From an uncultured Methanomassiliicoccales archaeon (GTDB lineage: Archaea; Thermoplasmatota; Thermoplasmata; Methanomassiliicoccales; CAZOLG01): a stretch of DNA of 64,000 nucleotides. The stretch covers positions 188,745-252,744 of the forward strand of contig CAZOLG010000001.1 of NCBI GenBank assembly GCA_964580935.1, in the 5' to 3' direction. Below are positions 129 through 58,228 of the stretch, one piece after another (position 1 is the stretch's first letter; every line of letters begins with the position of its first letter). The notes under the pieces are model-generated. The model searched no databases. It saw only the letters and a program-made list of their open reading frames with translations, and was not told where the DNA came from. The position numbers were made by a program, and so were the translations under genes.

Positions 129-312
129 TCATGGTCCAATACTTGCACACGTAACCGACTTGATAGGTTAAACCCTCTTCTCCGGAACCTCATCGGAAAT
201 AATCTGGTGAGGTCCTCATCAACTTCTTCAAAGACATGATTCTCTGTTCTTTTTGAAGGAAAGTTATATAGTTTCAATGAACGATAGTGTATCAACTGAT
301 GGGGGGAATTCT

Positions 313-1371: not shown

Positions 1372-1373
1372 AA

Positions 1374-1408
1374 CTGGCCGAAGGCCAGCTTTCGTTTTTT
1401 ATTTTTTT
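1374..1408 (+). terminator. Hairpin plus T-tracts downstream of methyltransferase 1
   Basis: CTGGCC-GAA-GGCCAG stem-loop (1374..1388) is followed by TTTCGTTTTTTATTTTTTT. Confidence 0.5.
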
Positions 1409-1460
1409 CGGCCCTGCAAGAAATCAGAATCTTAAATCGATATATAATCGGAGTGATTGA

Positions 1461-2126: not shown

Positions 2127-2148
2127 AGATTACGATCGAGGGATTACC

Positions 2149-3201: not shown

Positions 3202-3243
3202 AGAGAAGTATGAGGTAAACGGTTTAAATAAAGGAGGAAACGC

Positions 3244-4869: not shown

Positions 4870-4887
4870 AACCATTTAATTCCCTCC

Positions 4888-4902
4888 TCTTTTCTTTTTT
4901 TT
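4888..4902 (+). terminator. T-rich tract after amidohydrolase (archaeal-type terminator candidate)
   Basis: CTCTTTTCTTTTTTTT lies immediately after the TAA stop at 4867-4869. Confidence 0.3.
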
Positions 4903-4988
4903 CAAAAATACCAACAGATTATGGAAGAGGAGAAGCAAAGGTATTTCTCTTAATTTCCTACTATTATAAGCAATAAAAGGGGGATTAG

Positions 4989-6326: not shown

Positions 6327-6475
6327 TTCGCAATCCCTCGCTTACAGGGGGCGAATTGTGGTCTCCAAACCCCTTTCTATTTCTATCCCACAAATTCTTT
6401 AAAACACCTGAGGGTGTAGCTATCGAGATCAGCATCATGGATCGAAAAGGGCCCTGAAGCTGGAGTCGGAGACAA

Positions 6476-8332
6476 TTACTCCCCTATCCCCAACCGCTCG
6501 ACGACGGTTGGAAAAAGAGAGAGGTCCATGTGAGGGATGAACATCGCCTTGTAGAATTCGTCCTCAAAATCTTCCTGAGCCGCAAGTTCGAGGTATTCTA
6601 TGCGCTCCACCATCTCGTCCGCCCTCTTCCTCTTCCCACCGTTCAATACGGCCATCTTACACCCCGTACCTGCCGCGTTACCCACTCCTCTTATTCTCCC
6701 CAAAGAGACCTCAGGGAAGATACCGATATTGAGTGCATTTACCGGTGAAATGTAATTGCCGAATGCCCCTGCAAGGAATATATTCTTCAGCTGTTCAGGT
6801 CTGACGTTCCTACGGTTCATCAACGTAGAAGAACCGACATACAAGGCTGCCTTGGCGTACTGTATCTGTTCGATATCATTCTGAGTGATCGAAATTAGCT
6901 TATCAGATCCAGACTCACCCTCTTCCGCCAGCACGTACTCCAGCTCTCCATCGACCATCCTGACTCTGGAACTACCTATCTCCTTGCGGATTCTTCCTGA
7001 GTAGTCGATGACCCCACTCCCCAGCATCTCTGAAATGGCGTCCACGACGCCGGATCCACAGAGCCCGATCGGGGGGGCGTCTCCTATGGTGCCACATTGC
7101 ACCTCGAAATCATCGCTGATAGTGACTGATTCGATCACCCCCTCGGTGGCCCGCATGCCATATTTCAGATTGGCCCCTTCGAAGGCCGGACCGGCTGCGG
7201 TGGAGGTGGAGATTATACCATCCTCAGTGATCAACGAGATCTCTCCATTGGTGCCAATATCTATTACCAGAGAAGGGGCCTCCAGGTCTTCCAGTTCGCA
7301 GGCCAGAAGGGCCGCCACATGGTCTGCTCCCACGAAGCCGGCGATGTTGGGCAGAGAAGAGACATATCCCTCTTTATTGACATTGATTCCCAGTTCCGAG
7401 GCCTTGAACTCCAGGCTGCTACAGGAGACCGGTACATATGGACACAGGGCGAGATGCCTGGTATCCAGCCCGAAAAGGAAGTGGTGCATGGCCGTATTGC
7501 CCACTATTCCCACTTCATATATCCTCTCTTTGCTTATTCCTGCAGAAGAGCAGAGATCTCCTACTAAAGTGTCAATACACTCAACAATCGACTCCTGAAG
7601 AATAGAGGTCCCGCCTTCTTTTTCCATGGACATCGTGATCCTGGAGATCACGTCGTCACCATACTTGATCTGAGGATTCATCATCGACCGCACCGAGAGG
7701 TGAGCCCCGTTCTCCAGGTTCAACAGATAGCCTACAACTGTGGTGGTCCCTATATCTACAGCCACTCCATATATGTCGTGTGATGCCCCGGCAGAAAGAT
7801 CGAGAACTTCGCCATCTTTACTCACCACCCAGACTTCGGAGTTTGACCTCAGTATATGGGGGAGATCTCTCAGGAGCGATAATCCGATATTCATTGGTCT
7901 AGCCCTGCCTAGAGCATCAATTAACCTCTCGAAATCGCTGATCTGATGCTCCAGAGAGGGGTCCTTAATGACCACCCTCCTCACCTCGATAACCGGATCT
8001 ATGTCTAGATCGGAGAGAGAGTCCTCTAAGATCACCTGTTCATGCCTAAAATACTCAGATGGAATCTCGATATCAAGGTCGTCCACTACCTCAAGTTGGC
8101 AGGCCAACCTCATACCGGAATCCAACTCCTCTTGAGAAAGTTGCTCCCTTTCAATTTCACCTATTGGAGCCGTTCCCTTCTTGACAACTATTCGGCAGTT
8201 AGTACATGAACCCCGGCCACCACAGGTGGACTCTATGGATATGTTTGCCCTGTTCAGAACTTCGAGCAGTTGCTCACCGATTGTCTTGGTTTCAATGTAC
8301 TTGTCTGTGGGTTGAATGTGGATTATGGGCAT
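6476..8332 (-). CDS. Reductive activator of corrinoid enzymes (RACo/RACE-type ASKHA ATPase with N-terminal 2Fe-2S ferredoxin domain)
   Basis: 618 aa. N-terminal plant-type ferredoxin cysteines CGGRGSCTNC...LACQ. ASKHA phosphate motifs VAVDIGTTTVVGY and VIDIGTNGEISL. COG3894-like length. Confidence 0.8.
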   Translation of the reverse strand: MPIIHIQPTDKYIETKTIGEQLLEVLNRANISIESTCGGRGSCTNCRIVVKKGTAPIGEIEREQLSQEELDSGMRLACQLEVVDDLDIEIPSEYFRHEQVILEDSLSDLDIDPVIEVRRVVIKDPSLEHQISDFERLIDALGRARPMNIGLSLLRDLPHILRSNSEVWVVSKDGEVLDLSAGASHDIYGVAVDIGTTTVVGYLLNLENGAHLSVRSMMNPQIKYGDDVISRITMSMEKEGGTSILQESIVECIDTLVGDLCSSAGISKERIYEVGIVGNTAMHHFLFGLDTRHLALCPYVPVSCSSLEFKASELGINVNKEGYVSSLPNIAGFVGADHVAALLACELEDLEAPSLVIDIGTNGEISLITEDGIISTSTAAGPAFEGANLKYGMRATEGVIESVTISDDFEVQCGTIGDAPPIGLCGSGVVDAISEMLGSGVIDYSGRIRKEIGSSRVRMVDGELEYVLAEEGESGSDKLISITQNDIEQIQYAKAALYVGSSTLMNRRNVRPEQLKNIFLAGAFGNYISPVNALNIGIFPEVSLGRIRGVGNAAGTGCKMAVLNGGKRKRADEMVERIEYLELAAQEDFEDEFYKAMFIPHMDLSLFPTVVERLGIGE

Positions 8333-14862: not shown

Positions 14863-15032
14863 CATTATCCGATAATGTCATCAGGAAATTACGGAGTAGT
14901 AATAAGTGCAACTTCTGTTGGCGGTGGATTTGGAGATGTGAGTGACCAAATGGAACTCACCTTAGAGTGGGGAGAGACATATTCATTTGTACTATACGTT
15001 TGAATTCAAGCGAATTGTAACTCTACTGAAGC

Positions 15033-15368
15033 CTATCTAATCCTGGCTCCACAATGCTTACAGTACTTTGCTCCTTCCTCAGTAGGTTTGCCACATTGAG
15101 GACAATACATCGGACGCCCTTCGTATTGAGGCATCCTGTCGGCAGAGTGGGGATGATATTTAGACCTTATGAGTAGTGAGGTAATTAGAAAACCAGCGCC
15201 TATGAGAATAATCGCAATCCCAAGATAGCCCAAATCGTTGATTCTATAATGAGTAGTATTGAATATCGTCCAGATCTCGATACCACAGAAGAATAGAATC
15301 ATTATCCCCACTACTATTGCAAATATACCCGCTGCCAACGCGAAGTCCTTTTCCGGGGATCTATCCAT
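15033..15368 (-). CDS. Membrane protein (3 TM) with C-terminal zinc ribbon
   Basis: 111 aa. Hydrophobic helices, then CPQCGKPTEEGAKYCKHCGARIR. Confidence 0.6.
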   Translation of the reverse strand: MDRSPEKDFALAAGIFAIVVGIMILFFCGIEIWTIFNTTHYRINDLGYLGIAIILIGAGFLITSLLIRSKYHPHSADRMPQYEGRPMYCPQCGKPTEEGAKYCKHCGARIR

Positions 15369-15745
15369 GCTTTATTTCAATTGGTTTCATATACTATATT
15401 CTTAACTCATCCATTGATAAGTCTGATTATGTGATTTACTAGCTTGATTTGAAAAGAACAAATATTTCAAACGAATTCATTGCGACACAGCGCTTCCCTC
15501 TCATCTACAAATTTCTTAAGTTTATTACAAAAGACTTAGTAGCATAAATATCACCCACTGGACCTCATTTAGTCAACGACGCTTGCCCGAATATCAACAA
15601 AATCACTGGTAGTCAAATCATATATAAAGGAACACTGCGCCGATCCTCAAAGTTAAGGCGCGAACCCCTGCTTCTGGACGTAATCTTACCCTTCCAGTAA
15701 TCGATATTCCACCTCTCCGGTCCCCGGTGTCTCTATCGGCTCCTC

Positions 15746-16288
15746 TCACTCAGAAGACCGTCTAACTTCCTCAAAGATTCCCGTTTCGTCGAGGATGTCG
15801 ACGATCTTTTTGATGCGATCTGGATCATCCTCCTCCACGGGTCCTCCGTTCATGGTTTCCATCTTCACGTATTCCGTCGGGTCCCCGCGCACCTTTAACT
15901 CGAGTTCGACCGCCTCTTTGAACCACCGTATCATGTCGGAAGGAGTGAGGTCCCACCCTTCGTTTTCGAGCATCGCCTCGAGCCTCTTCCGGACCGCACT
16001 GTGGAATTTCTCACATGTTTTGAGCGTTTCCTCATTCCGTCTCCTCCTCAGCTCGGCCATGTGCGCCATCTGCATGCGCTCCAGGTGTTCGTCGTAGGCC
16101 TCCGCCCTTTTCACCCAGTCGTATTTAGCAGACCACTTCTGTATATATCCGAGGTATCCCTTCGGCCTTTCCAGTCTCTGCCGTACCCTGTCGTGAGTTC
16201 TCTCCGGTCCCATATCACGGTACAGGCAGAACGCATGGTAGGACTTCGAGGTTTCATCCTCTTTTTTTTCCCACGGCAGTTTAGTCAT
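15746..16288 (-). CDS. Hypothetical DNA-binding-like protein (N-terminus resembles phage/plasmid HTH or small-terminase-like proteins)
   Basis: 180 aa. The pattern YHAFCLYRDMGPERTHDRV...YIQKWSAKYDWVKRAEAYDEHL recurs in mobile-element HTH proteins. The family assignment is from memory only. Confidence 0.5.
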   Translation of the reverse strand: MTKLPWEKKEDETSKSYHAFCLYRDMGPERTHDRVRQRLERPKGYLGYIQKWSAKYDWVKRAEAYDEHLERMQMAHMAELRRRRNEETLKTCEKFHSAVRKRLEAMLENEGWDLTPSDMIRWFKEAVELELKVRGDPTEYVKMETMNGGPVEEDDPDRIKKIVDILDETGIFEEVRRSSE

Positions 16289-16438
16289 GATATCACCACC
16301 TGTCTCCCCACTATTTACAGTCTTCCGTCCACCTACTACGCCTCCCGGCCGGCGGTGAGACGGGCCCTCACCCCCTGGTGTTACCCCTCCCCTTTTTCCT
16401 AATAATTCGCCTTTTTCCTATATATATAATTTACCATC

Positions 16439-16651
16439 ATGTCCGGTGGTGCCAGACGTCTCAGGGCGGCCTCTTTCGTCCTCAAGAACATGCCCACTAA
16501 AAGGCCGGTAATATCCCGCGCCGGTCCTTCGGACCCAGAATCCATATTGAAGGATGATGCCTTGAAGAAGACTTTCGGCGAGACTTTTGAACCGGACAGT
16601 CAGGAGTTGGAAGATTTTGCCAGGAAACTGGCAGAGAAATTGAATGACTGA
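16439..16651 (+). CDS. Hypothetical small acidic protein
   Basis: 70-aa ORF between two minus-strand genes. No recognizable motif. Confidence 0.3.
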   Translation: MSGGARRLRAASFVLKNMPTKRPVISRAGPSDPESILKDDALKKTFGETFEPDSQELEDFARKLAEKLND

Positions 16652-16804
16652 ATCGAAAATAAAGTATAGGGTAAACATACGGTAAACATAGGGTGATATG
16701 AAAATATTGTGTCAAACCGTGTATCGTAGATCTGTGGATGTTTTTGGAGGGACCCACCCCCCCAAACACTAATATTTTTTGATAGTGATTTGTACAATTC
16801 TAAT

Positions 16805-17404
16805 CTAATCTGAAACACTTTCCGATAATTTATCATACTGCATTTCTGCAAATTCCTTGAAATCATCGAAGTCTATTGACACGTCTTCAGAGGTGTAGAC
16901 ATTCTGGCATAACATATGAATCACTACATTACCAGTTCGGAAATATTCATAATGATAATCACCGGGAGGAGCGTTCAAGGTCCATCCTAGACTATTATTA
17001 CCTAGTTCTAAAGAGACTGCATCAGCATATTGGTGTTCCGAAGTTAGGTTTATGTAGGCTTCTTGGGCCTTAGAAGGAGTTTCATATTTCATTAGAGATA
17101 TTTTGATGCTAACAACAGCCATTCCACCTGAGTATCTCTTTTCAAATGAGGCGAATGAAGCATCTGACCAAATGGGATCTGTTGTCAAGTCATCTGCCTC
17201 CTTAACTTGCCATTGACTATCGATCTCTGTTAGATTCAGTATCAATTCGCTCGCAGGTAGAGTATAGATGCCCCCTTCTGGATAATTGACTCCTGCATTA
17301 TCTTCATCAATATCAGTGCCGAGACAGCCCGACAGACTTAGAGAAATAGCCAGGATTCCAACCAAAATAACGGAAACCATTCTTGAGTTGCATTCCTTTT
17401 TCAT
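16805..17404 (-). CDS. Putative lipoprotein / secreted protein
   Basis: Start set at ATG 17404 (MKKECNSRMVSVILVGILAISLSLSGC). This gives a signal peptide with a lipobox-like LSGC. Confidence 0.6.
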   Translation of the reverse strand: MKKECNSRMVSVILVGILAISLSLSGCLGTDIDEDNAGVNYPEGGIYTLPASELILNLTEIDSQWQVKEADDLTTDPIWSDASFASFEKRYSGGMAVVSIKISLMKYETPSKAQEAYINLTSEHQYADAVSLELGNNSLGWTLNAPPGDYHYEYFRTGNVVIHMLCQNVYTSEDVSIDFDDFKEFAEMQYDKLSESVSD

Positions 17405-17414
17405 TTTTTTACCT

Positions 17415-17555
17415 CTAATCTCTCTTGAGTGAGAGATAGACATGGTGACAAAAGGAACAATGCCATTCAATATTGAATGGATAGATATCTTCATCGATAG
17501 AATCTATCTTGGTCATCTGGCGGCCACAGACTGGACATTTCAATTTCATATTCAT
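17415..17555 (-). CDS. Small zinc-ribbon protein (46 aa), not in the ORF track
   Basis: Translated by hand: MNMKLKCPVCGRQMTKIDSIDEDIYPFNIEWHCSFCHHVYLSLKRD*. It has CxxC...CxxC and ends 11 nt before the lipoprotein start. Confidence 0.45.
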   Translation of the reverse strand: MNMKLKCPVCGRQMTKIDSIDEDIYPFNIEWHCSFCHHVYLSLKRD

Positions 17556-17596
17556 TTTCCTAAATGTCTCAACTTAGCTGACTGCAAAAATTATTT

Positions 17597-17815
17597 CTAT
17601 GGATAGTCAGACATATCTCCTTCCTGGTCAAACTTTGGTGCCCGTAGCATCTTTTCAGGAGTATGACATATCGGACATCTGCGGGGCCATTTCCATACAA
17701 GATAGATAAGACCAGGGATTAATCCCAGAAGAAATAGGATAATCATTATTCCCAGATGCCAACTGTGTTCAGTGTCAACATTCCTTTTACATGATGGACA
17801 GTATTTCATGGTCAT
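17597..17815 (-). CDS. Zinc-ribbon / TM / CxxC mini-membrane protein
   Basis: MKYCPSCKRNV... followed by TM IMIILFLLGLIPGLIYLVW ... RRCPICH. Confidence 0.55.
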   Translation of the reverse strand: MTMKYCPSCKRNVDTEHSWHLGIMIILFLLGLIPGLIYLVWKWPRRCPICHTPEKMLRAPKFDQEGDMSDYP

Positions 17816-18255
17816 TGGGCAACCCCACAGATTGTCATTTCTTTAGTTATATAAATAAATTTCATTTCTTCCCAACAGGTTCAAGAGACCAGATGGTATA
17901 CTGGTCAATTCCGACATTACTTGTAACCGCCCGGAAAAATGAAAAAGGAAGTAATGTGAAATCCAACATTACTTCCATCCCGGACAAAAGGACCACTGCC
18001 CGGATCCCCAGGATTGATGCACAACCCCCCCCCCTCTTCTAGGCAAAAGTTTACCATCCGGTAAGCGGGTCCGCTACCGGTGGCGCCAGGTCCGCGCCGG
18101 GGTCCTGATCATACCTTTTTCGATAAAGGGGCCGAATGGAGATATACATCGAAAGATTTATATAATCGTTCGAAATGTTCTATGAAGAGTAACTGAGTTT
18201 AGCCCCCTTCATTAATAAATAACCATAAGGTTTATATAATTGTGCCATATGTTTA

Positions 18256-18438
18256 ATGAAGAGCGTGACCGGGGCGGCCGGTTATTTTCTTCAGGAGATT
18301 CAAATGAAGCGCAATATATTATTCGAAATAGACCAGAATGAAAAAAGGCTCCTGGACATAGCCAAGGCGAAAAGTGACTACGAAACATGGAAGGATTTCT
18401 TCATATCTTTAGTAGAGAGCCAGGAGAATGACGAATGA
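18256..18438 (+). CDS. Small hypothetical protein, possibly ribbon-helix-helix-like (alternative start 18304)
   Basis: MKRNILFEIDQNEKRLLDIAKAK... shows a beta-strand/helix pattern. A TTTATATAAT box lies about 25 nt upstream of 18256. Confidence 0.4.
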   Translation: MKSVTGAAGYFLQEIQMKRNILFEIDQNEKRLLDIAKAKSDYETWKDFFISLVESQENDE

Positions 18439-18728
18439 ATCTAGAAAAATTAGAAGAGCTGGTAGAATCTGACAATCCTATCCAGTTGAGCAGGCCCGCT
18501 AGAAGGGTTGAGTTAAAACAATCTGAGGCGATAGATGAGCTCAGCGATCAGCTTTACTCTCCCACCTGCGGCTTCAGAAGAGCAGAGAAGGCGGGTAATG
18601 AGGTCCAGATGATCAGGTGGCATAAGCCCGCTCTCAAGGAGTTTAACAAGGTCCTGGGCGCCTACGACAGGGCGCGGAGGATTCTGTTCAGGCGGACGGT
18701 TGACGCAATGAACATTAGGATACATTGA
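18435..18728 (+). CDS. Hypothetical protein, translationally coupled to the preceding ORF
   Basis: 97 aa. ATGA overlap with the upstream stop. Confidence 0.45.
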   Translation: MNLEKLEELVESDNPIQLSRPARRVELKQSEAIDELSDQLYSPTCGFRRAEKAGNEVQMIRWHKPALKEFNKVLGAYDRARRILFRRTVDAMNIRIH

Positions 18729-18894
18729 GGAGGTCATCGAGGAGACGCTGTTCAACGAGGATTAAACCCCTTTCCCTTTATTCTTTCTTTCATTTCTTAT
18801 GAATCCATGAGGAAAATCTTCTTTAGGAACGGTGCGCGTACTTACTTATGAGCGGGAGACGGTTTGGATGAGAACCTGAATCGCCGCATTGGTC

Positions 18895-19473
18895 ATGGAG
18901 GTGAGGGGTTTGCATAAGTCATTCTGGCTTGGCCTGATTGGCGGGATATTTGGGATATCGGCATCCATCGGTGTTATATTTCTCGGTGGGCTTGAAGAGG
19001 CTTTTGGCGCGGGTGCGGGGGAGCTTTATGGTCTTGGGTTCGCTGCCATGATCTTTTCCGTTATCGGCATGGTCGGCGGGATACTGGAAAAGAACAAGGC
19101 GATCGGGGGCACACTGATGGTGGCAAGCGGAATAGTGGTCCTCATATGCATCTCACTATATGGGGTCCTCACCTTCGTGTTCTTCCTTATCGGAGGTGTG
19201 ATTTACCTGATAGAATGGAGGAAGGAAGCCCAATTCTCCACCAAAGTCAGAAATGAAACCACCGTCAAACAATCTACAACATCTGATGAACTGGATGAGA
19301 CAGATGCAATCATAGTCAGGCGTTGCTCGAAGTGTCACACAGTCCTTGAGGATGATTGGGCGGTGTGCCCAAAATGTAAGAGTGTCTTTCGGAAGAAGTG
19401 CCCAGATTGTGAGAGAATCTTACCGAAGAATTTCGAAGCCTGTCCATATTGTGGACACGATTTCGGTAATTGA
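18895..19473 (+). CDS. Membrane protein (4 TM) with C-terminal double zinc ribbon
   Basis: ATG at 18895 (the track TTG is at 18889). The C-terminus is CSKCH...CPKC...CPDC...CPYCGHDF. Confidence 0.6.
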   Translation: MEVRGLHKSFWLGLIGGIFGISASIGVIFLGGLEEAFGAGAGELYGLGFAAMIFSVIGMVGGILEKNKAIGGTLMVASGIVVLICISLYGVLTFVFFLIGGVIYLIEWRKEAQFSTKVRNETTVKQSTTSDELDETDAIIVRRCSKCHTVLEDDWAVCPKCKSVFRKKCPDCERILPKNFEACPYCGHDFGN

Positions 19474-19499
19474 TAAAGAAAAAGTCAGACGCTGGGTTC

Positions 19500-19694
19500 T
19501 CATAATAGAGAGTCATCCCTCTCCTCCAAAGCCACCAGCTCCTCGCTGATCCTGACCTTCAGCTCTGGGTGATTTGCCAGCGCTTTATCGAGGATCCGAA
19601 TGATGTCCTGGATTAGATTCTCCGTTTGTGCACATTTCGGACAGAGGCGCTGCTTGCCGATCCAGTCGACGCGGATCGTGTGATCCTTGGGCAC
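19500..19694 (-). CDS. Hypothetical protein with a single CxxC pair; reading frame stays open and protein-like up to 19934
   Basis: GTG start at 19694 in the track. The upstream in-frame sequence ...ERNYLNVIEAGDHQRALNWARGWSDGIEKLLKATGVYDRAKKEVERE has no canonical start. It competes with antisense ORF 19626..19928. Confidence 0.35.
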   Translation of the reverse strand: MPKDHTIRVDWIGKQRLCPKCAQTENLIQDIIRILDKALANHPELKVRISEELVALEERDDSLL

Positions 19695-20132
19695 CTCCCT
19701 CTCAACCTCTTTCTTGGCGCGATCGTAAACACCGGTGGCCTTGAGGAGCTTCTCGATACCGTCGCTCCATCCCCGCGCCCAGTTAAGCGCTCGCTGGTGA
19801 TCCCCGGCCTCGATGACATTGAGGTAATTCCTTTCACATTCGGAGAGGAAACCCCCGCGCTTCCTTTGGAGAGTACTGGATGGAGATTTGGATTTCCTTT
19901 GATTCAGAAAGATATAAAGGCGGGGTAAATCGTGTCAATTTGAACATGGCCCCGACACTTTCACTTTGGTTGGGCATGAATTAAAATAGGTACAAGCGTT
20001 ATAAATTTCGAGGTGAGAAAAAAGAAAAAAGAAATCCGCATTTTGGATAGATTTAAACGCTAGAGATTTAAGAAGAACGTTGGGAAGGGAGGAATCCCTG
20101 CCAGGAAGCTCCCTTCCCCATCACTTCGGAAA

Positions 20133-20369
20133 GTGATTAAAATGAATAATGAAAGAATAAGTAATAATCATTTCGGTGAAAAACCGGATAAAGACGAACT
20201 TGAAAAAATTTTACAGACTGAAATGTGTCTGGGAGTAATTTTGAGGGCCAGATATCCAGATATTTTGGATATCGTAAGAGAATTGGAAGACCATCCAGAA
20301 CTAGATATAATCTACGTCCGAAAATCGATAGGCAAGCTCTGGATTCGGGGGGAGGGTAATGACTACTGA
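20133..20369 (+). CDS. Small hypothetical protein (first gene of the element replication-like module)
   Basis: 78 aa. GTG at 20133 or ATG at 20142. It overlaps the next ORF. Confidence 0.4.
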   Translation: MIKMNNERISNNHFGEKPDKDELEKILQTEMCLGVILRARYPDILDIVRELEDHPELDIIYVRKSIGKLWIRGEGNDY

Positions 20370-20595
20370 GGTCAAGAGAGAGCCCGTACCGGCCGGTTTG
20401 GACATGGAGGCACCCTTCTATATCATCGCCTGGGAGAAGGGCCTGATGGACGACTTAGAGGGTATTCTGGGGCTGTATGTGGACATGATCACCCGTGGTA
20501 GGGTCCTGGTCAAGCCCGTCCACCTGAGAGAATTGGAAGCGTGGCAGCGGGTCCTTAGGGATTATGATTGTGTCCTAATCCCGGAGGTGCTGTAA
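20359..20595 (+). CDS. Small hypothetical protein
   Basis: 78 aa. It overlaps both neighbours; the TAATG junction at 20593-20597 joins it to the P-loop gene. Confidence 0.45.
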   Translation: MTTEVKREPVPAGLDMEAPFYIIAWEKGLMDDLEGILGLYVDMITRGRVLVKPVHLRELEAWQRVLRDYDCVLIPEVL

Positions 20596-22130
20596 TGAGC
20601 GAAGGAGTGGCTAAGCCGGGCCTGATCATCGATAAGACCAGTGATCTCAAAATAGTTGAACAGTGCTATAATGGTCAGAACCCCCATTTCGTGGTGTTTG
20701 ACGCGCTTACTGAAGAATGGGAACCGAGGTCTCAAGTGAAGCACAACGACGTGTTGTATTCTCCAATTCAGGACGCGCTGTTGGAGAAAGGGTTTATCTA
20801 CCTCCCATCAAGACCGGAGGACTACGAGGATGAATTGAGCCTCTTCAATGAGATCATCGACTTCCTCCATGAATGGGTGGACGTTGGAGACAGGACGACA
20901 GAGAAGCTAATCACCGCGTACATTCTGATGACTTGGCTATACGATAAGATGCCCTGCATTCCAATCCTCAATATTCGGGGAGGGAAAGGTGCAGGCAAGT
21001 CAAGGTTGGGAACGCTGTGCATCCGGTTGTCATTCAGAGGTATGAGAGGATCCGGAGCGGCCACCTTCTCCCCCATATTTCGTAGCGTAGAACGGTGGAA
21101 AGGCACACTATATCTTAACGAGAACGACATGGGGCATACCGATGAGACCTCTAACTTGGTGACCTTTCTTAATGAGAGATTTGAGAAAGGGGGCGGTGTA
21201 TGGCGCTCCAAAAAAAACAACCCCAGTCAGACGGAGGTTTTCAATTCTTACGGACCTACCATAATGACCACCCGATCCGCTTTTCAGGACGATGCGGTGG
21301 AGTCCAAGAGTATAATCATCAGGATGAAGGAGACTGAGAGGGATATTTTATTGAACCTCCCCCCAAGATTCTACGAGAAGGCGGCGGAACTGCGCAACAA
21401 ATTGTTCATGTTCCGGCTTCGTAACTACTTCGCCTTTAAAAATGATTATGAATTGCGGTTTGAGGGTATCTCTCCCAGGATGGGGCAGATCGTGCAGCCA
21501 CTGGGAAGTCTTGCCAGGATGATTTCAGATGAGTTTTACAATGAGATTAAGAGCTTGGTCAATGAGTTATTCCAGAGGCAGGTGAAAGAGGCCGCCGATT
21601 CATACGATGGGAGGGTAGTTAGAGCATTCTTCTCTCTTGAAAATAAGAATGGTAAGAATACTGGAATCACGGCCACTGAGATATCAAAGCAGACAGATGA
21701 GTGGGACTGTAAAATTTCGCCGGCGGTTGTAGGTAAACGAATGAAGGCCCTCGATTTCGAGCAACGAAGAAAGGGTAATTCTCGCCCCTATTTCCTGGAA
21801 GATGATCGGAAGAGGCAAAGGTTGCGCAGGAATTACATCCCCTTAGACGAAAGGGGGGACAATCGAGAGGTCCAGAGAACGATCGAGAACGTGTCTCATG
21901 ACAGCTGTGACAGCTATGACAGCTACATGGGACAGGGTGGGGGTGTGATCTCTTCCCAACAGGAGAGCATTGAGTACCTACGATATGTGATCGACAACCA
22001 GTCCGTCACCATAGATGACCTGGTAGAATTCAATGACCGCGTGCCCAACATCCAGACAACGGCTAAGAAATTGAAGGAACAGGGTGAGATTATCGAGCTC
22101 CCTAATGGAACTCTGGAAGTCAAAAGATAG
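20595..22130 (+). CDS. P-loop NTPase, possibly SF3-type replicative helicase / replication initiator of the element
   Basis: Walker A RGGKGAGKS and Walker B-like TLYLNENDM. The C-terminus looks wHTH-like. It carries the 3 x 9-bp repeat encoding DSCDSYDSY. Confidence 0.6.
   Translation: MSEGVAKPGLIIDKTSDLKIVEQCYNGQNPHFVVFDALTEEWEPRSQVKHNDVLYSPIQDALLEKGFIYLPSRPEDYEDELSLFNEIIDFLHEWVDVGDRTTEKLITAYILMTWLYDKMPCIPILNIRGGKGAGKSRLGTLCIRLSFRGMRGSGAATFSPIFRSVERWKGTLYLNENDMGHTDETSNLVTFLNERFEKGGGVWRSKKNNPSQTEVFNSYGPTIMTTRSAFQDDAVESKSIIIRMKETERDILLNLPPRFYEKAAELRNKLFMFRLRNYFAFKNDYELRFEGISPRMGQIVQPLGSLARMISDEFYNEIKSLVNELFQRQVKEAADSYDGRVVRAFFSLENKNGKNTGITATEISKQTDEWDCKISPAVVGKRMKALDFEQRRKGNSRPYFLEDDRKRQRLRRNYIPLDERGDNREVQRTIENVSHDSCDSYDSYMGQGGGVISSQQESIEYLRYVIDNQSVTIDDLVEFNDRVPNIQTTAKKLKEQGEIIELPNGTLEVKR
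21898..21923. repeat. Three tandem 9-bp units (GACAGCTNT) inside the P-loop gene; inverted partner of 14292..14317
   Basis: ATGACAGCTGTGACAGCTATGACAGC matches the reverse complement of 14292..14317 at 25 of 26 positions. Confidence 0.8.
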
Positions 22131-22164
22131 ATATGTCTGTAAGTACATCTGGGTGGTGAGAAGG

Positions 22165-23109
22165 ATGCCTTCCAAGAGGCGGATATGGGAGCGCATCCTG
22201 CGGGAGTATCTAGAAGATTGCAGGGACAGACAACTCAGCAAATCTACGATAAAGAACTACCGGTACACACTGAAGAATCTACTGGAAACACTGGAGAAGG
22301 GTGGTAAGAACACCCACCCAGATAAGATAGGTAAACAGGACCTGGCCTATCTACTTTCCAGTCTAAAGGGAACCCAGAAAACGATGCAACACAAGGTTGC
22401 GGTCCTTAAGGTGTTCCTGAAACACCACGGTAATACAACGCTAGACAAAATGGGAGTGTCCTACCAGACAGACATGAGACCTAACGCAGACTGGTTGAGT
22501 CCTGAAGAATCGGAGATAATCAAGACAGTATGCGCCACCCCGGTGGAATGCCTTATAGTCCATCTGGAGGTTGATTTGGGGCTGAGAAGGGTGGGTATAA
22601 TGCGCCTAACCAAGGAGTCCATAAACCACCGCAGTAGGACGGTCAATGTACTAGGCAAGGGTAGGATGGGAGGTAAGGAAAGGACGGTACCCTTCCATAG
22701 AGATACCGAGAACGTGCTAACAAAATACTACGAATGGAGGCAAAAGATGGTACTACAGGAAATGAGTAAGAACTCCAACTTCGAGGACCCAGATAAACTG
22801 CTATTGGTGAAATCTAAGGGACAACTCAAGGTACCGACTATCTACATGTTCGATGGTAGGCTCAGGGAGGTCTCCAAGAGATCGGGTATCAAATTCTCCA
22901 ACCACACACTCAGAAGGACCTATGGCCGGAATCTGTGGAAGGCGGGGGTCCCCTTGGAGACAATCAAGGAGCTGATGGGGCACTGCTCTATCGACACCAC
23001 CATAGATTACCTAGGTATACGACTAGACGACATGACCGATGCTATGGACAGACTAGGAGAGTATCAGAAGAGTATATTATGCCCTCAAGAAGGCATTTTT
23101 GAGCCCTAG
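22165..23109 (+). CDS. Tyrosine recombinase / integrase (XerC/D-like)
   Basis: Start at ATG 22165 (MPSKRRIWERIL). Catalytic motifs: GLRRVGIMRL (Arg), HTLRRTYGRNL (H-x-x-R) and MGHCSIDTTIDYL (His ... Tyr). Confidence 0.9.
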   Translation: MPSKRRIWERILREYLEDCRDRQLSKSTIKNYRYTLKNLLETLEKGGKNTHPDKIGKQDLAYLLSSLKGTQKTMQHKVAVLKVFLKHHGNTTLDKMGVSYQTDMRPNADWLSPEESEIIKTVCATPVECLIVHLEVDLGLRRVGIMRLTKESINHRSRTVNVLGKGRMGGKERTVPFHRDTENVLTKYYEWRQKMVLQEMSKNSNFEDPDKLLLVKSKGQLKVPTIYMFDGRLREVSKRSGIKFSNHTLRRTYGRNLWKAGVPLETIKELMGHCSIDTTIDYLGIRLDDMTDAMDRLGEYQKSILCPQEGIFEP

Positions 23110-23128
23110 CCAGTGTGTTCTAACAACA

Positions 23129-23158
23129 ATATAAATATATTGCTTGTAAAATCACTGG
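23129..23158. repeat. attR (30-bp direct repeat)
   Basis: Identical to 14106..14135. Confidence 0.9.
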
Positions 23159-23738
23159 CTGACAAAGAAAGAGGCCGTTGTTATTCATTCTCCATTGTTG
23201 TGCGAATTCCTTCTTCCATATTCTACATATGGAGAGGACATATGATTACACAATTGTTCTCCTGAAGTCCGAAATCGTGAAGCTGCCATAGAGGTGCTCG
23301 ATAGAATTGCTGATCGTAATCTCTAAGGCCCGATGTCAAGGCATTTGACAATTGATGCAATATGTCAGATAAATGGATACAAAATAGGTTCTCCAGCATC
23401 TGAATGATAAGTTGAAGAGGGGGTGAAAGAAGATCGGTGTTGATATGATTTACTGAAGACCAAATATGTAAAATGACTGTTGAAATGGACCGGGCGAAGA
23501 GTGATCTTCGACAATCTGCAGACTGTACAGTAATGACATCTAAGACAAAGGTAGTTAGTCAAAGGTCAACAGTCTGGAATAGATTTTGAAGGACAATATT
23601 AATCTGGATACAATGCGAAGGTTCTCCTCCAGAATAATGTCAAGCCACCCCCCTAAGAGTCATCAAATTGACTCGAGGTCCTATTTAGCGAGGGATCATT
23701 ATCCGTCAAAGTGTCTTATTGCTTGCACCGGCCAGAAA

Positions 23739-31426: not shown

Positions 31427-32245
31427 CTATCTCCCTTTGTAGGCAACGATCCTAGCATTGGCCACCGACAGATAGGACTGGATTACTACATCAGGATCGA
31501 TTTCTTCCCCTTTCTTTTCCTTCTCCTTCTGAACAGTCCGAAGAAAAGATCGGGCCTCGTCCTCTGAGTAAGTTCGCTTATCTATTATCTCAGTATTCAC
31601 AAAACCAGCGTCACCAATGAGGGACAAACATTCCTCCTCTGAAAGAGCCCCTGAGATGCAACCTCCCCACAGATCTTCGTCTCCCATAGCCTCGTCAGGG
31701 AGATCGTCTACCAAGATACGGTCAGAGAACACCAGTTTACCTCCAGGCCTAAGAATCCGGTGTACCTCCTCGAAGACCGCCCTCTTGTCAGTAGACAGAT
31801 TGATCACGCAGTTGCTGATGACCACGTCCACCAAGTTGGATTCCACAGGGATATGTTCGATCTCTCCTAGTCTAAACTCGGCATTGTCTAACTTCATGTT
31901 TTCGGCCGCGTTCCTTGCCTTCCACAGCATCTCTGGTGTAGAATCGATGCCTATAGCTCGTCCACCTGGAGAAACCTTTCTTGCCGCCAGAAATACATCC
32001 ATACCCGCGCCACTGCCCAGATCGACCACCACCTGGCCGGGTTCAAACTCTGCCAGGGCCACCGGATTCCCACATGAGCACACAGAGGCCTTCACAGAAT
32101 CAGGGATCTCTTCCAACTCTTCATGAGAGTAGACTCTGATCATCTCCTCCGTACGTGGAGTGTCTCCCTCTTCCGTCTGGGCCAGATCGCCGTAGCGGTT
32201 CCTCACTGACTCCTTGATCTCATCTTCTCTTTCATTTTTCTTCAT
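31427..32245 (-). CDS. arsM: SAM-dependent methyltransferase, arsenite methyltransferase (ArsM)-like
   Basis: SAM motif I VVDLGSGAGMDVF, plus NCVINLSTDK and RILRPGGKL. An upstream cysteine pair (CSCGNP) is typical of ArsM. Confidence 0.7.
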   Translation of the reverse strand: MKKNEREDEIKESVRNRYGDLAQTEEGDTPRTEEMIRVYSHEELEEIPDSVKASVCSCGNPVALAEFEPGQVVVDLGSGAGMDVFLAARKVSPGGRAIGIDSTPEMLWKARNAAENMKLDNAEFRLGEIEHIPVESNLVDVVISNCVINLSTDKRAVFEEVHRILRPGGKLVFSDRILVDDLPDEAMGDEDLWGGCISGALSEEECLSLIGDAGFVNTEIIDKRTYSEDEARSFLRTVQKEKEKKGEEIDPDVVIQSYLSVANARIVAYKGR

Positions 32246-32506: not shown

Positions 32507-32632
32507 ATGATGGGCGCAAAGGGAGGGATAGTATTGAAGATATATGTTTGTGAAGACTGTGAGAGATCTTTCAACGAAGACATGGGTAAGTGTCCTGAGT
32601 GCGGCGAGAAGCTGAAAAAGAAGGAGACATAG
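32507..32632 (+). CDS. Small zinc-ribbon protein (41 aa), not in the ORF track
   Basis: Hand translation: MMGAKGGIVLKIYVCEDCERSFNEDMGKCPECGEKLKKKET*. Confidence 0.4.
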   Translation: MMGAKGGIVLKIYVCEDCERSFNEDMGKCPECGEKLKKKET

Positions 32633-32737
32633 GACCCATTCCATAAGTCCGTTGATCAAAAATTGCTTCCGTCTATTTTTTTAATTCATAAAAAATAAAG
32701 GTTAATAAGTTTCGTGGAAGTGGAGACCTTCGAGATT

Positions 32738-32992
32738 TCAGTCCGGGGACTTCTCCTCGCTCTTGTCTTTGAGCTTGGCCGAGGCTCTTGCTACCCAGAT
32801 GATTATCAACACCGCAATCACGGTCACCAGAATGGCGTAGGTTAACATCTGGGGAACTCCTTCCCAGTTCTCCCCAAAAACTTCTTTGAATATTGCGATA
32901 ATCGCCTGGTTCCAGGCCAGTGCTGCCACCAGACCGAAGGCCGCGATTATCAGATCACCCATCTTATCCACTATTTCCTCTCTTAAGCTCAT
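32738..32992 (-). CDS. Small 2-TM membrane protein (N-terminus reminiscent of MscL TM1)
   Basis: ATG 32992 forms an ATGA overlap with the stop of the upstream ORF. Sequence: MSLREEIVDKMGDLIIAAFGLVAALAWNQAIIAIF... Confidence 0.6.
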   Translation of the reverse strand: MSLREEIVDKMGDLIIAAFGLVAALAWNQAIIAIFKEVFGENWEGVPQMLTYAILVTVIAVLIIIWVARASAKLKDKSEEKSPD

Positions 32993-33297
32993 TGTCTTCT
33001 CCTCCTGCAAGCCTTACACCGCGGGCTTGCATGATAGAAAGTTTTCATCTTCAGTATTTTATCTTTTTTGATTGGCTCTTGGAGAGACGGAGAAAATGGA
33101 TAGTGTGCTAGCTCATCGCTAGATATCTCATTCAGAATCTCCCCATTCTCAGCGTCCTTGATAGAGTTGGCCGGGCGCCGATAAGAGTAATGCCCAGTAA
33201 CCTCAGTTTCCTGAAATTCAGGAACCTTATCCCTGGTCGATCTCGACTCCATATCGTGTGAAATACTCAGCCATTGATATTCGTCACCATTGAACAA
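32989..33297 (-). CDS. Hypothetical acidic protein between heliorhodopsin and the 2-TM protein
   Basis: Supported by the ATGA coupling to the downstream gene. The start is uncertain (TTG 33297 or ATG 33252). Confidence 0.4.
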   Translation of the reverse strand: MFNGDEYQWLSISHDMESRSTRDKVPEFQETEVTGHYSYRRPANSIKDAENGEILNEISSDELAHYPFSPSLQEPIKKDKILKMKTFYHASPRCKACRRRRQ

Positions 33298-33343
33298 CTC
33301 AATCTATTAACGATGGAAAGGGAAAAGATATTGGAAAATGTTT

Positions 33344-34150
33344 CTACACTCCTCTGAGTGTTCCTGCCCAGATGATCCACGCCAGTGCTGACTTAGATAC
33401 CAGACTGAGGACGATGTACCCCTTTTCGCCGAACAGATAGTTCTTCCACCTACCCACTTTCCTATACTGAAGGACCATATTGATGGGGAAGGTAATCCAG
33501 AATGCTAGCAGAACGATGATGAGCACGTAGACGAAGGTGGGGATGGTGTCTGCGTTGGTGTATATGGCCCCTGTGAAGTAGAGTATTATCACCACCCAGG
33601 GAATCGCTCCGGCAAAAGAACCGAAATAGAACGATGTCCAGTCCGTCTTCTCCGTGGCCTGATTGTGGCGTTCCATCATCAATCCAAAGAGGTTCATCGA
33701 GGCGTTGGCGGCGATGATCAACAACAGAGCCGCTATGTCGAATATCCCAGTAAGCATGGCCAGAACCATGATCATGATGGAAGAGGTGACCGCGTATTCA
33801 TACCACCTCGCGGGGTTCATACCCTTACTTATCTTCCTCACATACCAGCCATATCCGTAGGTGGCCAGAGAGAGGTGCGCGAAGGCGGTTATGAACAGAA
33901 AGAGGGCGATAAGAGGGCCCAGGGGCACCTCCACCACGGTTTCAGTCGCCTTGATGAGGGCATTTCCACCCGGATCAAATTTCAGGAAATTCGTCTCTAT
34001 AGGGAGTGTGTAATCATTGCTCAGGGCGAACATAAAAACGCCCTGAATGGCGTGTATCACGGCCATAACGCCATTGAACTTGCGGAGCATCCTGTACCTA
34101 GGTTCAGCTCCCCTGTCATCTATATCATCATTCTCCCCCCCACTTTCCAT
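33344..34150 (-). CDS. Heliorhodopsin
   Basis: 268 aa, 7 TM. It aligns closely by eye with HeR 48C12 as recalled from memory: RWYEY (counterion Glu118) versus RWVEY, and GEKGYIVLSLVSKSALAWIIWAGTL (Lys253, codon 33392..33394) versus GERAYIVLSLVAKSALAWQIFSGTL. LRKFNGVMAVIHAIQG is also shared. Confidence 0.9.
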   Translation of the reverse strand: MESGGENDDIDDRGAEPRYRMLRKFNGVMAVIHAIQGVFMFALSNDYTLPIETNFLKFDPGGNALIKATETVVEVPLGPLIALFLFITAFAHLSLATYGYGWYVRKISKGMNPARWYEYAVTSSIMIMVLAMLTGIFDIAALLLIIAANASMNLFGLMMERHNQATEKTDWTSFYFGSFAGAIPWVVIILYFTGAIYTNADTIPTFVYVLIIVLLAFWITFPINMVLQYRKVGRWKNYLFGEKGYIVLSLVSKSALAWIIWAGTLRGV

Positions 34151-34288
34151 AGAGTGTTCGTTCTATTGCCCAGGTTATATATAGATTTCTAATGTAGAGT
34201 GAAATATTCGTCTCCATCCCTCAGCCCATGACATCGTTACACGGTTCAAAAATCCTCGGCAGTTGCGAAGACACGATCTGAGGAGGAG

Positions 34289-34362
34289 TGCGGGCGTCGG
34301 GATTCGAACCCGACTTCTAAGCTTGGCAAGCTTAAGTGATAACCAGGCTACACTACGCCCGC
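34289..34362 (-). tRNA. tRNA-Gly (GCC)
   Basis: Acceptor GCGGGCG/CGCCCGC, anticodon arm TAAGC-TTGCCAA-GCTTA, T arm CGGG-TTCGAATC-CCG, discriminator A. No encoded CCA. Confidence 0.9.
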
Positions 34363-54462: not shown

Positions 54463-54549
54463 GCCGGGATGACAGAGCGGCCATGTGGCGGACTGCAGAC
54501 CCATGGCGGCAATCCGCATACCCGAGTTCAAATCTCGGTCCCGGCTCCA
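54463..54549 (+). tRNA. tRNA-Cys (GCA) with about 13-nt intron after position 37 and encoded CCA
   Basis: Acceptor GCCGGGA/TCCCGGC, discriminator U73. Anticodon stem GCGGA ... TCCGC is interrupted by ACCCATGGCGGCA (54499..54511). Loop CTGCAGA, T arm CCGAG-TTCAAAT-CTCGG. Confidence 0.85.
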
Positions 54550-56048: not shown

Positions 56049-57902
56049 TCACCGCCTGCACTTGCTGTTTGGCACCATGATCTCGAATCGGACCCCCTTA
56101 TCTGGCGTCCCCACCTCTTCGATCTCAAACCCCGATATCTTGACGATCTCCTTGACCAGGTACAGCCCGAAACCGGACGCGTGGCCGTATCCCCTTTCGA
56201 ATATCTTCTCCTTCTTTTCCTCAGAGATTCCCACGCCATTGTCCTCGAAAATAATGCGGGTGTGATCTTCCTCCTCTACATAGCTCACCGCGATGTTTTC
56301 TACCCCTCTACCATGCTCCAGCGTGTTGTGAATGAGGTTGTAGAACGCATTATCCAATAGGGGGTCAGCATAGACTTCTAGCGAATCGAAATCGATATCC
56401 AGATTGACCTCCCAGCTTTCAAATCTCAACCACTGCTTCTTGATATCATCCGCGACATTGATCCATTCCGGACTTTGCGTTCCAATCCGCTGGTAATTCC
56501 TTTGAAATTCCAGGTGGTCGTAGATATCCTCGATATTCGTTCTAATCTTTTCGAGATACCTGGTGAGTTTCTCGTCCTTCACATTGCTCAACACCAGGTC
56601 GTTGTAACCCTCGATCACGGAGAGTTTGTTATAGATATCGTGACGGATCACACTACTGATTAGATTCAGTTTACTATGAGCCAGTTCAAGATCGTTGTGA
56701 ATATTCTTGCGTTCAGTGATGTCCCTCACGGACTCAATAGCCCCTATTGTCTCCCCGTTCTCGTCATAAAGAGGAGAAGCCATGATCCATACGTACGCTC
56801 CTTCTCCTTCGCGTAGATTGGGGGCGTAGGACTCTGCAATGTAAGTGTCCCCCTCTCTCTCAATGCAATCATAACAGCTCTTAATGCTCTCAATTTCCCC
56901 CTCATCCTCTGAGAAGATCAGATCGACAACGATCAGCCTGTTCTCCCCGTAGAAAGGCTTTCCCCGTGCTAGCACCCCCTTGCCCATCATCTCCTGTTTG
57001 GAATATCCGGTGAGTCTCTCCATTGCCCTGTTCCATGCAGATATCTTTCCGTCGGAATCGACAACGAATGTGGCATCCGGCAGAAAATCAATAATCTGCT
57101 CCATTTCTTTCTGTGTCCTACGCAGCTCCTGCTCGGCCCTCTTCCTTTCCGTGATATCGTGTGCGGTGCAGACAATGTACCCCACTTCGCCCTCATTGTT
57201 CAATTTCGGGTTCTTGGTAACCACCAGGCATCTGAGCTTCCCCTCACTATCGGTGACCCATTCCTCCTTCTGATACTTCTCTCCGGTCCGGAAGACTTCT
57301 TTATTACCCGCTATACAAACTTCTGCCTCTGAAGGGGGCATCACCTCACACAACCTCCTCCCTTCCATCTCTTCCTTTCTCATTCCCAAGAAATCTGCTC
57401 TCGCCCTGTTGACATTGCCGTATACCTCAGGGTCAACGGCGTACCACACCTGGGTCTCGATATCGTCCAATAGCCTGCTCTGGCAGTACAGAGCCTCTCC
57501 AGAATTACTTTCAGTTACTTCCGATATTCCCCCCAAAACCTGCTCAATCGTATCCATAAGTCCATCCGACCGCCGTTCAAGATCTTCTCCCTCTTTCAAA
57601 TGGAAACGGTCGTCTTCATCCGACGCCTGAATAGCCTCTTGTCCAGGCTCTTCAGAAAGAAATATTATAGGTGTCGAGCAGCCCTCATCTCCCAGCTTTC
57701 TCAATAGTTCGCTCCCAGTGATCGATAGTACTGAGGAATCAGTGAGAACAATATCGTATTCTAAGTCCCTTATAGAGCTGAAAGCTCCATCTATCGTGTC
57801 TGCAGTTTCAATGGTGAAACGGTTCTCAGTCCCCTCAAAATAATTCTCCACTTGCTTCAGACTGTCTGGTCCTTCGTTGATTACCAATATTCTGACCGCC
57901 AT
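56049..57902 (-). CDS. Hybrid sensor: receiver (REC) + PAS domains + histidine kinase
   Basis: Start at ATG 57902 (MAVRILVINEGPD). Two or three PAS-like segments. H-box IRHDIYNKL, N-box LIHNTLEHG, G-box FERGYGHASGFGLYLV. Confidence 0.8.
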   Translation of the reverse strand: MAVRILVINEGPDSLKQVENYFEGTENRFTIETADTIDGAFSSIRDLEYDIVLTDSSVLSITGSELLRKLGDEGCSTPIIFLSEEPGQEAIQASDEDDRFHLKEGEDLERRSDGLMDTIEQVLGGISEVTESNSGEALYCQSRLLDDIETQVWYAVDPEVYGNVNRARADFLGMRKEEMEGRRLCEVMPPSEAEVCIAGNKEVFRTGEKYQKEEWVTDSEGKLRCLVVTKNPKLNNEGEVGYIVCTAHDITERKRAEQELRRTQKEMEQIIDFLPDATFVVDSDGKISAWNRAMERLTGYSKQEMMGKGVLARGKPFYGENRLIVVDLIFSEDEGEIESIKSCYDCIEREGDTYIAESYAPNLREGEGAYVWIMASPLYDENGETIGAIESVRDITERKNIHNDLELAHSKLNLISSVIRHDIYNKLSVIEGYNDLVLSNVKDEKLTRYLEKIRTNIEDIYDHLEFQRNYQRIGTQSPEWINVADDIKKQWLRFESWEVNLDIDFDSLEVYADPLLDNAFYNLIHNTLEHGRGVENIAVSYVEEEDHTRIIFEDNGVGISEEKKEKIFERGYGHASGFGLYLVKEIVKISGFEIEEVGTPDKGVRFEIMVPNSKCRR

Positions 57903-58228
57903 GCGCGTCTTCACCTCGGAGTGGATCTCTTCCGTTGAGGGGGGCCAAAAACCCTCCAACTCTCTTACTCCTTCATTACATTTATTTCTATTGTATTAAT
58001 TCAGTTTCTAATCATATATCATTTCGATTGGAAATCAAAAGATTAGTCTCTGGCAGTCGCGTCCACAGCGGCGATTACCACCAGATAACTGGCCTGAGGG
58101 CAGATAAGATACCCCCATCCGCAGATCGAATATGCTCCCTCCAATCCCCCTGAATCACGCCCGAACGCAGACCTGCAACATTGGAGAAAGATATTTGAAT
58201 ACACAATTGTTTGGCGGTCTTGCCGACT

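Follow-up and report, generated by a model that had tools for sequence, protein, structure and literature searches.

A canonical heliorhodopsin gene of a Methanomassiliicoccales archaeon lies beside a truncated Er-VIT1 relic and a DUF5654 gene, two probably unrelated neighbors

Does a heliorhodopsin (HeR) gene that is followed on its own strand by two small open reading frames (ORFs) form an operon with dedicated partner proteins? The question is raised by a stretch of archaeal DNA of 64,000 nucleotides (here called the window), in which a 268-aa HeR ORF is followed by a 102-aa ORF that starts 46 nt after the HeR stop codon, and then by an 84-aa ORF, the ATG of which shares nucleotides with the TGA that ends the 102-aa ORF. 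The original prediction for this locus interpreted the arrangement as a three-gene operon encoding HeR and two small partner proteins. Comparative analysis points to another reading, which we hold with good confidence: the locus consists of one canonical HeR gene and two unrelated neighbors and encodes no fixed HeR partner.

The HeR gene is located at 33344..34150 on the minus strand. Its product matches the Pfam family Heliorhodopsin (PF18761) over the complete profile (positions 1 to 242 of 242; E value, 7.9e-95; 317 bits, with a cut-off of 26.7) and the NCBIfam HeR equivalog NF038020 (326 bits; cut-off, 100). Its best relative of solved structure is TaHeR (6is6; E value, 8.8e-74; residues 15 to 266 aligned), and the next is HeR 48C12 (E value, 1e-53). 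The hallmarks named in the original prediction are all in place. Residues 115 to 119 read RWYEY, in which E118, the single Glu counterion in TM3, is aligned with the Glu of the TaHeR sequence RWFEY. Residues 250 to 258 read LVSKSALAW, in which the Schiff-base lysine K253 of TM7 (codon 33392..33394) is aligned with the Lys of LVAKSALAW in TaHeR. The N-terminal LRKFNG (residues 22 to 27) is followed by H33 and Q36, and the conserved His pair of TaHeR, near the Schiff-base region, has its counterparts in H33 and H92. When the gene is compared to its counterpart on a sister contig (L085), the substitutions at codon positions 1, 2, and 3 number 11, 3, and 58, respectively, a pattern that points to strong purifying selection. 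The closest database relatives are 74 to 76% identical, and the named ones among them are Methanomassiliicoccales heliorhodopsins. Judged by its sequence, the 268-aa protein is a genuine canonical heliorhodopsin, a 7-TM retinal protein, as had been predicted. No gene with exactly this product is on record for the 587-kb source NCBI contig.

TaHeR, from the Thermoplasmatales archaeon SG8-52-1 (PDB 6is6, 7clj, and 7u55), can be aligned end to end with the HeR described here, and both proteins come from Thermoplasmatota archaea. H33, E118, and K253 correspond to what we take to be H23, E108, and K238 of TaHeR in its natural numbering, allowing for a 6-residue tag offset. An NQ motif following TM4 and the SxxxK context are likewise common to both proteins, and the His of the TaHeR string ATAHIL aligns with H92. 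They differ at the N terminus, which is approximately 10 residues longer and acidic in the present HeR (MESGGENDDIDD...), and in the loop around residues 193 to 197, where the present HeR carries a 5-residue insertion. HeR 48C12 from freshwater Actinobacteria (PDB 6su3 and 6uh3) belongs to the same family and has the same key residues but is bacterial and more distant. Alignment to these two proteins had been proposed as a check on the original prediction, and the result agrees with it. To our knowledge, no biochemistry exists for the Methanomassiliicoccales HeR clade.

By analogy, the protein would most likely act as a slow-cycling light sensor of inverted topology (N terminus cytoplasmic) that modulates a cytoplasmic or membrane partner and pumps no ions. 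Such a partner would most likely be encoded elsewhere than at the present locus. Because the 64-kb window contains no carotenoid or retinal biosynthesis genes, the retinal is probably taken up from the environment. The genomic context is as originally described: the window encodes HypA, HypD, a CobW/HypB/UreG-family GTPase, two URO-D-type methyltransferases, a B12-binding protein, and RACo. Genes for tRNA synthetases, a DEAD-box helicase, and an ArsM-like methyltransferase are present as well. These genes and the best named matches (Methanomassiliicoccales) fit a host that lives as an anaerobic methylotroph and belongs to the Methanomassiliicoccales group, consistent with the Thermoplasmata-group anaerobe that had been proposed. 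A HeR in such an anaerobic setting is not unprecedented, since HeRs have already been documented in strict anaerobes and in Thermoplasmatota (PMC8612252, PMC9585477).

Upstream of HeR, a tRNA-Gly(GCC) gene at 34288..34362 on the minus strand, found by ARAGORN and by the Rfam tRNA model (60 bits), immediately precedes the gene and forms the 5' bound of its transcription unit. A candidate archaeal TATA box (CTATATATAA) can be read at 34174..34183 on the same strand, approximately 28 nt upstream of the HeR ATG. If this element is real, the HeR mRNA would be leaderless or near-leaderless. The scan for sigma-70 promoters and hairpins is of a bacterial type; the host is archaeal, so its output is uninformative here.

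The 84-aa ORF (32738..32992, minus strand) encodes a member of DUF5654 (PF18898), a family for which we know of no function. The match covers positions 3 to 70 of the 71-position Pfam profile (E value, 1.1e-20; 73.9 bits, with a cut-off of 23.8). The protein has 188 archaeal homologues, including proteins from Nitrosopumilus, Methanomicrobium, Nanoarchaeota, and Thermoplasmatota, and it retains all 17 of the 17 invariant columns in a 38-sequence DUF5654 alignment, including the AAFGLVAALAWN motif. Relative to the sister contig, substitutions at codon positions 1, 2, and 3 number 5, 4, and 32, respectively, and the 84-aa product is on record for the source NCBI contig. The ORF is, by its homologues and substitution pattern, a real gene under purifying selection. 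In agreement with the predicted 2-TM protein, its AF2 model is a two-helix hairpin (pLDDT of 86.6); a Foldseek search of this model against the PDB gave zero matches. The protein is an ordinary, full-length DUF5654 membrane hairpin, distinctive only in its genomic position.

A helix of this protein had been likened to TM1 of MscL, a suggestion that we reject. What MscL and the 84-aa protein have in common is a pair of TM helices and, close to where TM1 begins, the short string AAFG. The 84-aa protein nevertheless gives no Pfam MscL match at an E value of ≤0.1, and hhalign assigns a probability of 0.7% to the comparison of the DUF5654 profile with E. coli MscL. The resemblance is superficial.

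The ORF between the two genes is of another nature. It spans 32989..33297 on the minus strand with a TTG start; the predicted length and the 46-nt gap are correct, but its product is not net acidic as had been stated (16 acidic versus 17 basic residues). The 102-aa product belongs to no Pfam or NCBIfam family and gives no match to Pfam VIT1 or Rubrerythrin even at an E value of ≤10. When 1.84 billion representative proteins were scanned exhaustively with HMMER, approximately 25 weak but consistent matches were obtained (E values of 5e-6 to 1e-3; 35 to 49% identity), in each of which ORF residues ~18 to 88 are aligned with the extreme N terminus of the matched protein. The proteins matched are of the VIT1/CCC1 type, and the matched region is their ferritin-like (erythrin) N-terminal domain. 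In a word index of a 5.8-billion-protein collection, no closer relative with three 5-residue words in common was found. The top match of the ORF, a 2,604-aa protein with an E value of 1.5e-13, was discarded as an artifact, its score being a sum over weak matches to one segment that is repeated.

A profile built from these matches aligns with the ORF at 66 bits over positions 8 to 78 of 137, corresponding to the first helix pair; the profile derives from the ORF's own matches, so the test is partly circular. The Er-VIT1 family is defined independently by Pfam VIT1 and Rubrerythrin in a full-length relative at another HeR locus (L165, 6226..7098; 290 aa; VIT1 E value, 9.6e-15), which also matches the NCBIfam iron exporter MbfA weakly. 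The segment at 33034..33246 on the minus strand is matched by profile to the N-terminal half of this Er-VIT1/MbfA-like ferritin-like (erythrin) domain and keeps 11 of the 13 most conserved family positions, including E...ExxH. With the Er-VIT1/MbfA exporters, ORF residues 18 to 88 (the N-terminal helix pair) have the elements QxxE-T-H-Y and DELxHY in common. Whereas those exporters comprise approximately 290 residues, only approximately 71 are left here. Because ferritin-like helices 3 and 4 and the whole membrane domain are missing, the product cannot be a transporter, and no other VIT1-like piece was found within the 64-kb window. The native ATG of the segment is probably 33250..33252, from which the ORF is 87 aa long.

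The other end of the ORF accounts for the apparent overlap with DUF5654. Its last ~12 residues (…HASPRCKACRRRRQ) result from translation of the DUF5654 leader, GGAGGAG included. Since the ORF ends in this way, the ATGA overlap is a chance stop of the 102-aa frame. The overlap that had been predicted exists, but the translational coupling does not follow from it: the 102-aa ORF is a relic, so nothing functional is linked. Two gene-calling runs left the ORF uncalled: its product is on record for the source NCBI contig with neither start, and it is uncalled on the identical Logan contig as well. On the strength of its profile matches, we identify the 102-aa ORF as a truncated relic of an Er-VIT1 (MbfA-like) iron exporter and not as a partner gene. 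The ferritin-like segment is a recent relic or, with lower probability, a sequence that some constraint still preserves.

From the HeR stop to the DUF5654 start, the spacer measures 351 nt (32993..33343, minus strand) and holds most of the 102-aa ORF. The sister contig (1.4 kb) carries, in the same order, the C terminus of HeR, a spacer, DUF5654 (84% amino acid identity), and a convergent 41-aa zinc-ribbon gene, and its coding regions are approximately 82 to 83% identical to the window at the nucleotide level. Its spacer, at 181 nt versus 351 nt in the window, differs by large indels. The part matching the ferritin-like segment is largely deleted, with no remnant detectable in the sister spacer. 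What this spacer keeps is only an A-rich block, approximately 55 to 70 nt upstream of the DUF5654 ATG, and GGAGGAG. The two elements lie at ~33055..33075 and ~32999..33005 on the minus strand of the window, upstream of DUF5654, and their retention suggests a putative promoter and ribosome binding site (RBS) of this gene. The Rfam scan detected no structured RNA in the spacer, its only match being the tRNA-Gly. After the HeR stop there are only short T-runs (T4) and no strong terminator before DUF5654, and co-transcription by read-through from HeR into DUF5654 is conceivable.

To evaluate how far DUF5654 is linked to HeR, 166 HeR loci were fetched, 139 of which include 500 nt or more of downstream sequence. 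Searched with a DUF5654 profile of 120 sequences, only two of the 166 proved to contain the family, the sister contig and L172. The latter is a 100% identical copy of the window and, being identical, adds no evolutionary information. Sequence of the organism itself is present in SRR7048218, and that of a sister in SRR10589506. At the 164 other HeR loci, including the fetched bacterial ones, DUF5654 was found near HeR in none. The adjacency in the sister contig is itself uninformative, because the unrelated convergent zinc-ribbon gene is syntenic there too. Likewise, a phmmer search with both small ORFs as queries gave zero matches among the six-frame ORFs of the 84 HeR loci fetched first. The adjacency of HeR and DUF5654 thus appears only as a lineage-restricted feature of the window, its identical copy, and one sister. 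By its own terms, the original prediction would fall if the small ORFs recurred beside HeR in no relative. The 102-aa ORF is conserved beside HeR in no relative; the 84-aa ORF is retained in that one near relative, and is missing at all 164 other loci.

Other genes occupy the neighborhood of HeR elsewhere. In HeR relatives at 74 to 76% identity, Lactamase_B-rhodanese or radical SAM genes lie downstream of HeR, a cupin gene lies upstream, and DUF5654 is absent. At HeR loci of Methanomassiliicoccales metagenome-assembled genomes (56 to 65% identity), the neighbors are a thioredoxin, a PALP enzyme, an ArsR-methyltransferase fusion, and a zinc-ribbon protein. HeR neighbors across the 166 loci vary by lineage, consistent with published surveys in that no single universal partner emerges. 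Conversely, DUF5654 has a setting of its own: at seven loci from two other Thermoplasmatota groups, the order is ribosomal S7/EF-2, a small ORF, DUF5654, and a convergent HMG-CoA reductase gene, while at two further loci it follows a response regulator. None of these nine DUF5654 loci contains HeR. A general linkage between HeR and Er-VIT1 was also considered and dismissed as coincidence; the full-length Er-VIT1 gene in L165 lies 1.4 kb downstream of HeR, and no other HeR locus has one.

Several HeR partner systems have been described. The partner of AbHeR is glutamine synthetase (PMC9529153), that of TfHeR is a photolyase (PMC9769723), and fusions of HeR to a Zn-ribbon or a MORN domain are found as well (PMC8612252). 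The general idea common to these systems and the original prediction is that HeR acts through a neighboring or fused partner. At the present locus, however, neither glutamine synthetase nor photolyase nor a Zn-ribbon or MORN fusion partner adjoins HeR. Moreover, those cases rested on tight spacing and recurrence, and the candidate partners here have neither. The published survey used a spacing of <10 bp for a HeR operon (PMC8612252), whereas the first real gene downstream of HeR begins only after 351 nt.

These results bear on how the three ORFs may be related. That HeR and the 102-aa and 84-aa ORFs constitute one co-translated operon, with the small proteins as dedicated HeR signaling partners, now seems hardly credible. 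The single strand, the 46-nt gap, and the ATGA overlap had suggested it, and the HeR-DUF5654 order does persist in the sister contig, but the middle member is a truncated Er-VIT1 that is largely deleted in that same contig, uncalled, and devoid of close homologues. The last member, for its part, is missing at 164 other HeR loci, with every fetched bacterial HeR locus lacking it, has a different conserved context elsewhere, and occurs in organisms as varied as Nitrosopumilus, Methanomicrobium, and Nanoarchaeota. A lineage-specific unit of two genes, in which HeR and DUF5654 would be co-transcribed over the 351-nt spacer and DUF5654 would have been recruited as a HeR membrane partner, fits some of the data: the genes have the same orientation and the T-runs past the HeR stop are only weak, their adjacency has been retained in the sister contig despite ~17% nucleotide divergence and spacer turnover, and different lineages are known to have different HeR partners, as glutamine synthetase (PMC9529153) and photolyase (PMC9769723) illustrate. 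We nonetheless regard it as unlikely. The unrelated convergent zinc-ribbon gene is equally syntenic in the sister contig, the conserved A-rich block and GGAGGAG suggest that DUF5654 has its own promoter and RBS, the gap is far above the <10 bp applied to HeR operons (PMC8612252), and the adjacency would have been born of the loss of an intervening gene. A specific form of this idea, in which read-through from HeR co-expresses DUF5654 as a relay of the HeR light signal, recruited in this one genus, is a long shot; if true, DUF5654 would gain its first known function, and a methylotrophic anaerobe would prove to be light responsive.

The middle ORF could also be imagined as a functional half-ferritin, a helix-loop-helix protein of 102 or 87 aa that dimerizes into a four-helix di-iron bundle. 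Such a protein would be compatible with the retained native start, with the conserved Glu and ExxH motif (DELAHY), and with the 11 of 13 top-conserved family positions. We judge it highly improbable, however. The matching part is deleted in the sister lineage, and in the ORF itself a Leu-to-Pro change falls in helix 1 and the conserved Trp that should follow helix 2 is gone. In addition, its 12 C-terminal residues come from translation of the DUF5654 leader, and the ORF is reported by no gene caller and has no orthologues.

Our preferred reading, a canonical HeR gene beside two unrelated neighbors, could have arisen as follows. An Er-VIT1 gene would formerly have been located downstream of HeR. 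A rearrangement in a recent ancestor of this lineage may have cut that gene to its first ~80 codons and, in the same event, set DUF5654 with its own leader beside the stump. The stump would then keep its native start and first helix pair before crossing, by chance, the DUF5654 5' region as far as the TGA in ATGA, and it would now be decaying, faster in the sister lineage. DUF5654 would be served by its own Shine-Dalgarno sequence and probably by its own promoter, and its usual place in other Thermoplasmatota is the one between EF-2 and HMG-CoA reductase. We infer the order of these events; the gene identities, the truncation, the non-recurrence, and the selection on the two real genes are direct results.

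For the pursuit of HeR partners, this locus is a poor choice, and its value in that respect is mainly negative. It also illustrates a general trap, in that the relic of a gene can mimic an operon of overlapping genes if the ORF map is interpreted with no comparative data at hand. The HeR, for its part, is one more sequence for a little-studied clade of anaerobic, probably methylotrophic Thermoplasmatota. This clade is possibly worth expressing, given the question of what a light sensor would do in such anaerobes.

On the far side of DUF5654, a T-run (TTTATTTTTTA; T6) is located at 32689..32699 on the minus strand, 40 nt past the stop codon of the gene. The A7 run next to it corresponds to T7 for the convergent zinc-ribbon gene, and the T6/A7 tract is likely to be a bidirectional archaeal terminator for DUF5654 and the zinc-ribbon gene.

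Two genes downstream of the heliorhodopsin (HeR) gene, and on the same strand, the window encodes an ArsM-like SAM methyltransferase (31427..32245, minus strand), which matches the NCBIfam arsenite methyltransferase model with 263 bits. A gene for an ArsR-HTH/methyltransferase fusion (6930..8018, plus strand) lies directly 3' of HeR in L007, a Methanomassiliicoccales locus whose HeR is 56% identical to that of the window. The presence of a methyltransferase downstream of HeR in both loci could be remnant synteny.

Zinc-ribbon genes are also found close to HeR. Fusions of a Zn-ribbon to HeR have been described in the Thermoplasmatales (PMC8612252). In the window, a 41-aa ORF with a CxxC...CxxC pattern (32507..32632, plus strand) is convergent to the DUF5654 gene, which encodes a two-helix membrane protein; its product is already on record for the source NCBI contig, and the ORF is kept in the sister contig L085 (about 900..1030). 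In L008, which belongs to another Methanomassiliicoccales MAG, the gene for a zinc-ribbon-headed protein (about 5425..5964) follows HeR on the same strand at a distance of about 100 nt. Because archaea very commonly encode small zinc ribbons, the occurrence of such proteins near HeR may be due to chance.

A full-length Er-VIT1 gene (ferritin-like plus VIT1; 6226..7098, plus strand) is located 1.4 kb downstream of HeR in L165, an unrelated GC-rich metagenome contig. This was the single such case among the 166 HeR loci, and the pairing was therefore judged coincidental.

The position of DUF5654 is conserved in two other groups of Thermoplasmatota (L086-L089 and L173-L175). In these loci, ribosomal S7 / EF-2 genes are followed by a small unannotated ORF and then by DUF5654, with a convergent HMG-CoA reductase gene; in L173, S12 additionally lies upstream of this stretch. 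The S7 / EF-2 to HMG-CoA reductase setting is the sole recurrent context seen for DUF5654, a family of unknown function.

Elsewhere in the window, a tyrosine recombinase/phage-integrase gene (22084..23109, plus strand) follows a run of ORFs for which no Pfam family was found, including 20568..22130, 15746..16288, and 16805..17494. Small zinc-ribbon proteins are encoded in this stretch as well, and the region of about 15000..23200 may represent an integrated mobile element. ARAGORN called an 87-nt tRNA-Cys(GCA) (54463..54549, plus strand), which is absent from the Rfam tRNA model matches at the gathering threshold and may contain an intron or be a marginal call. A hybrid response-regulator/PAS/HATPase_c sensor kinase (56049..57959, minus strand) is encoded 22 kb from HeR, beyond the 10-kb range within which histidine kinases are reported to be enriched around HeRs (PMC8612252). 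Finally, a corrinoid-dependent methyltransferase cluster (253..8332) comprising two URO-D-family methyltransferases, a B12-binding protein, an amidohydrolase, an aminotransferase, and a RACo-type reductive activator is consistent with methylotrophy.
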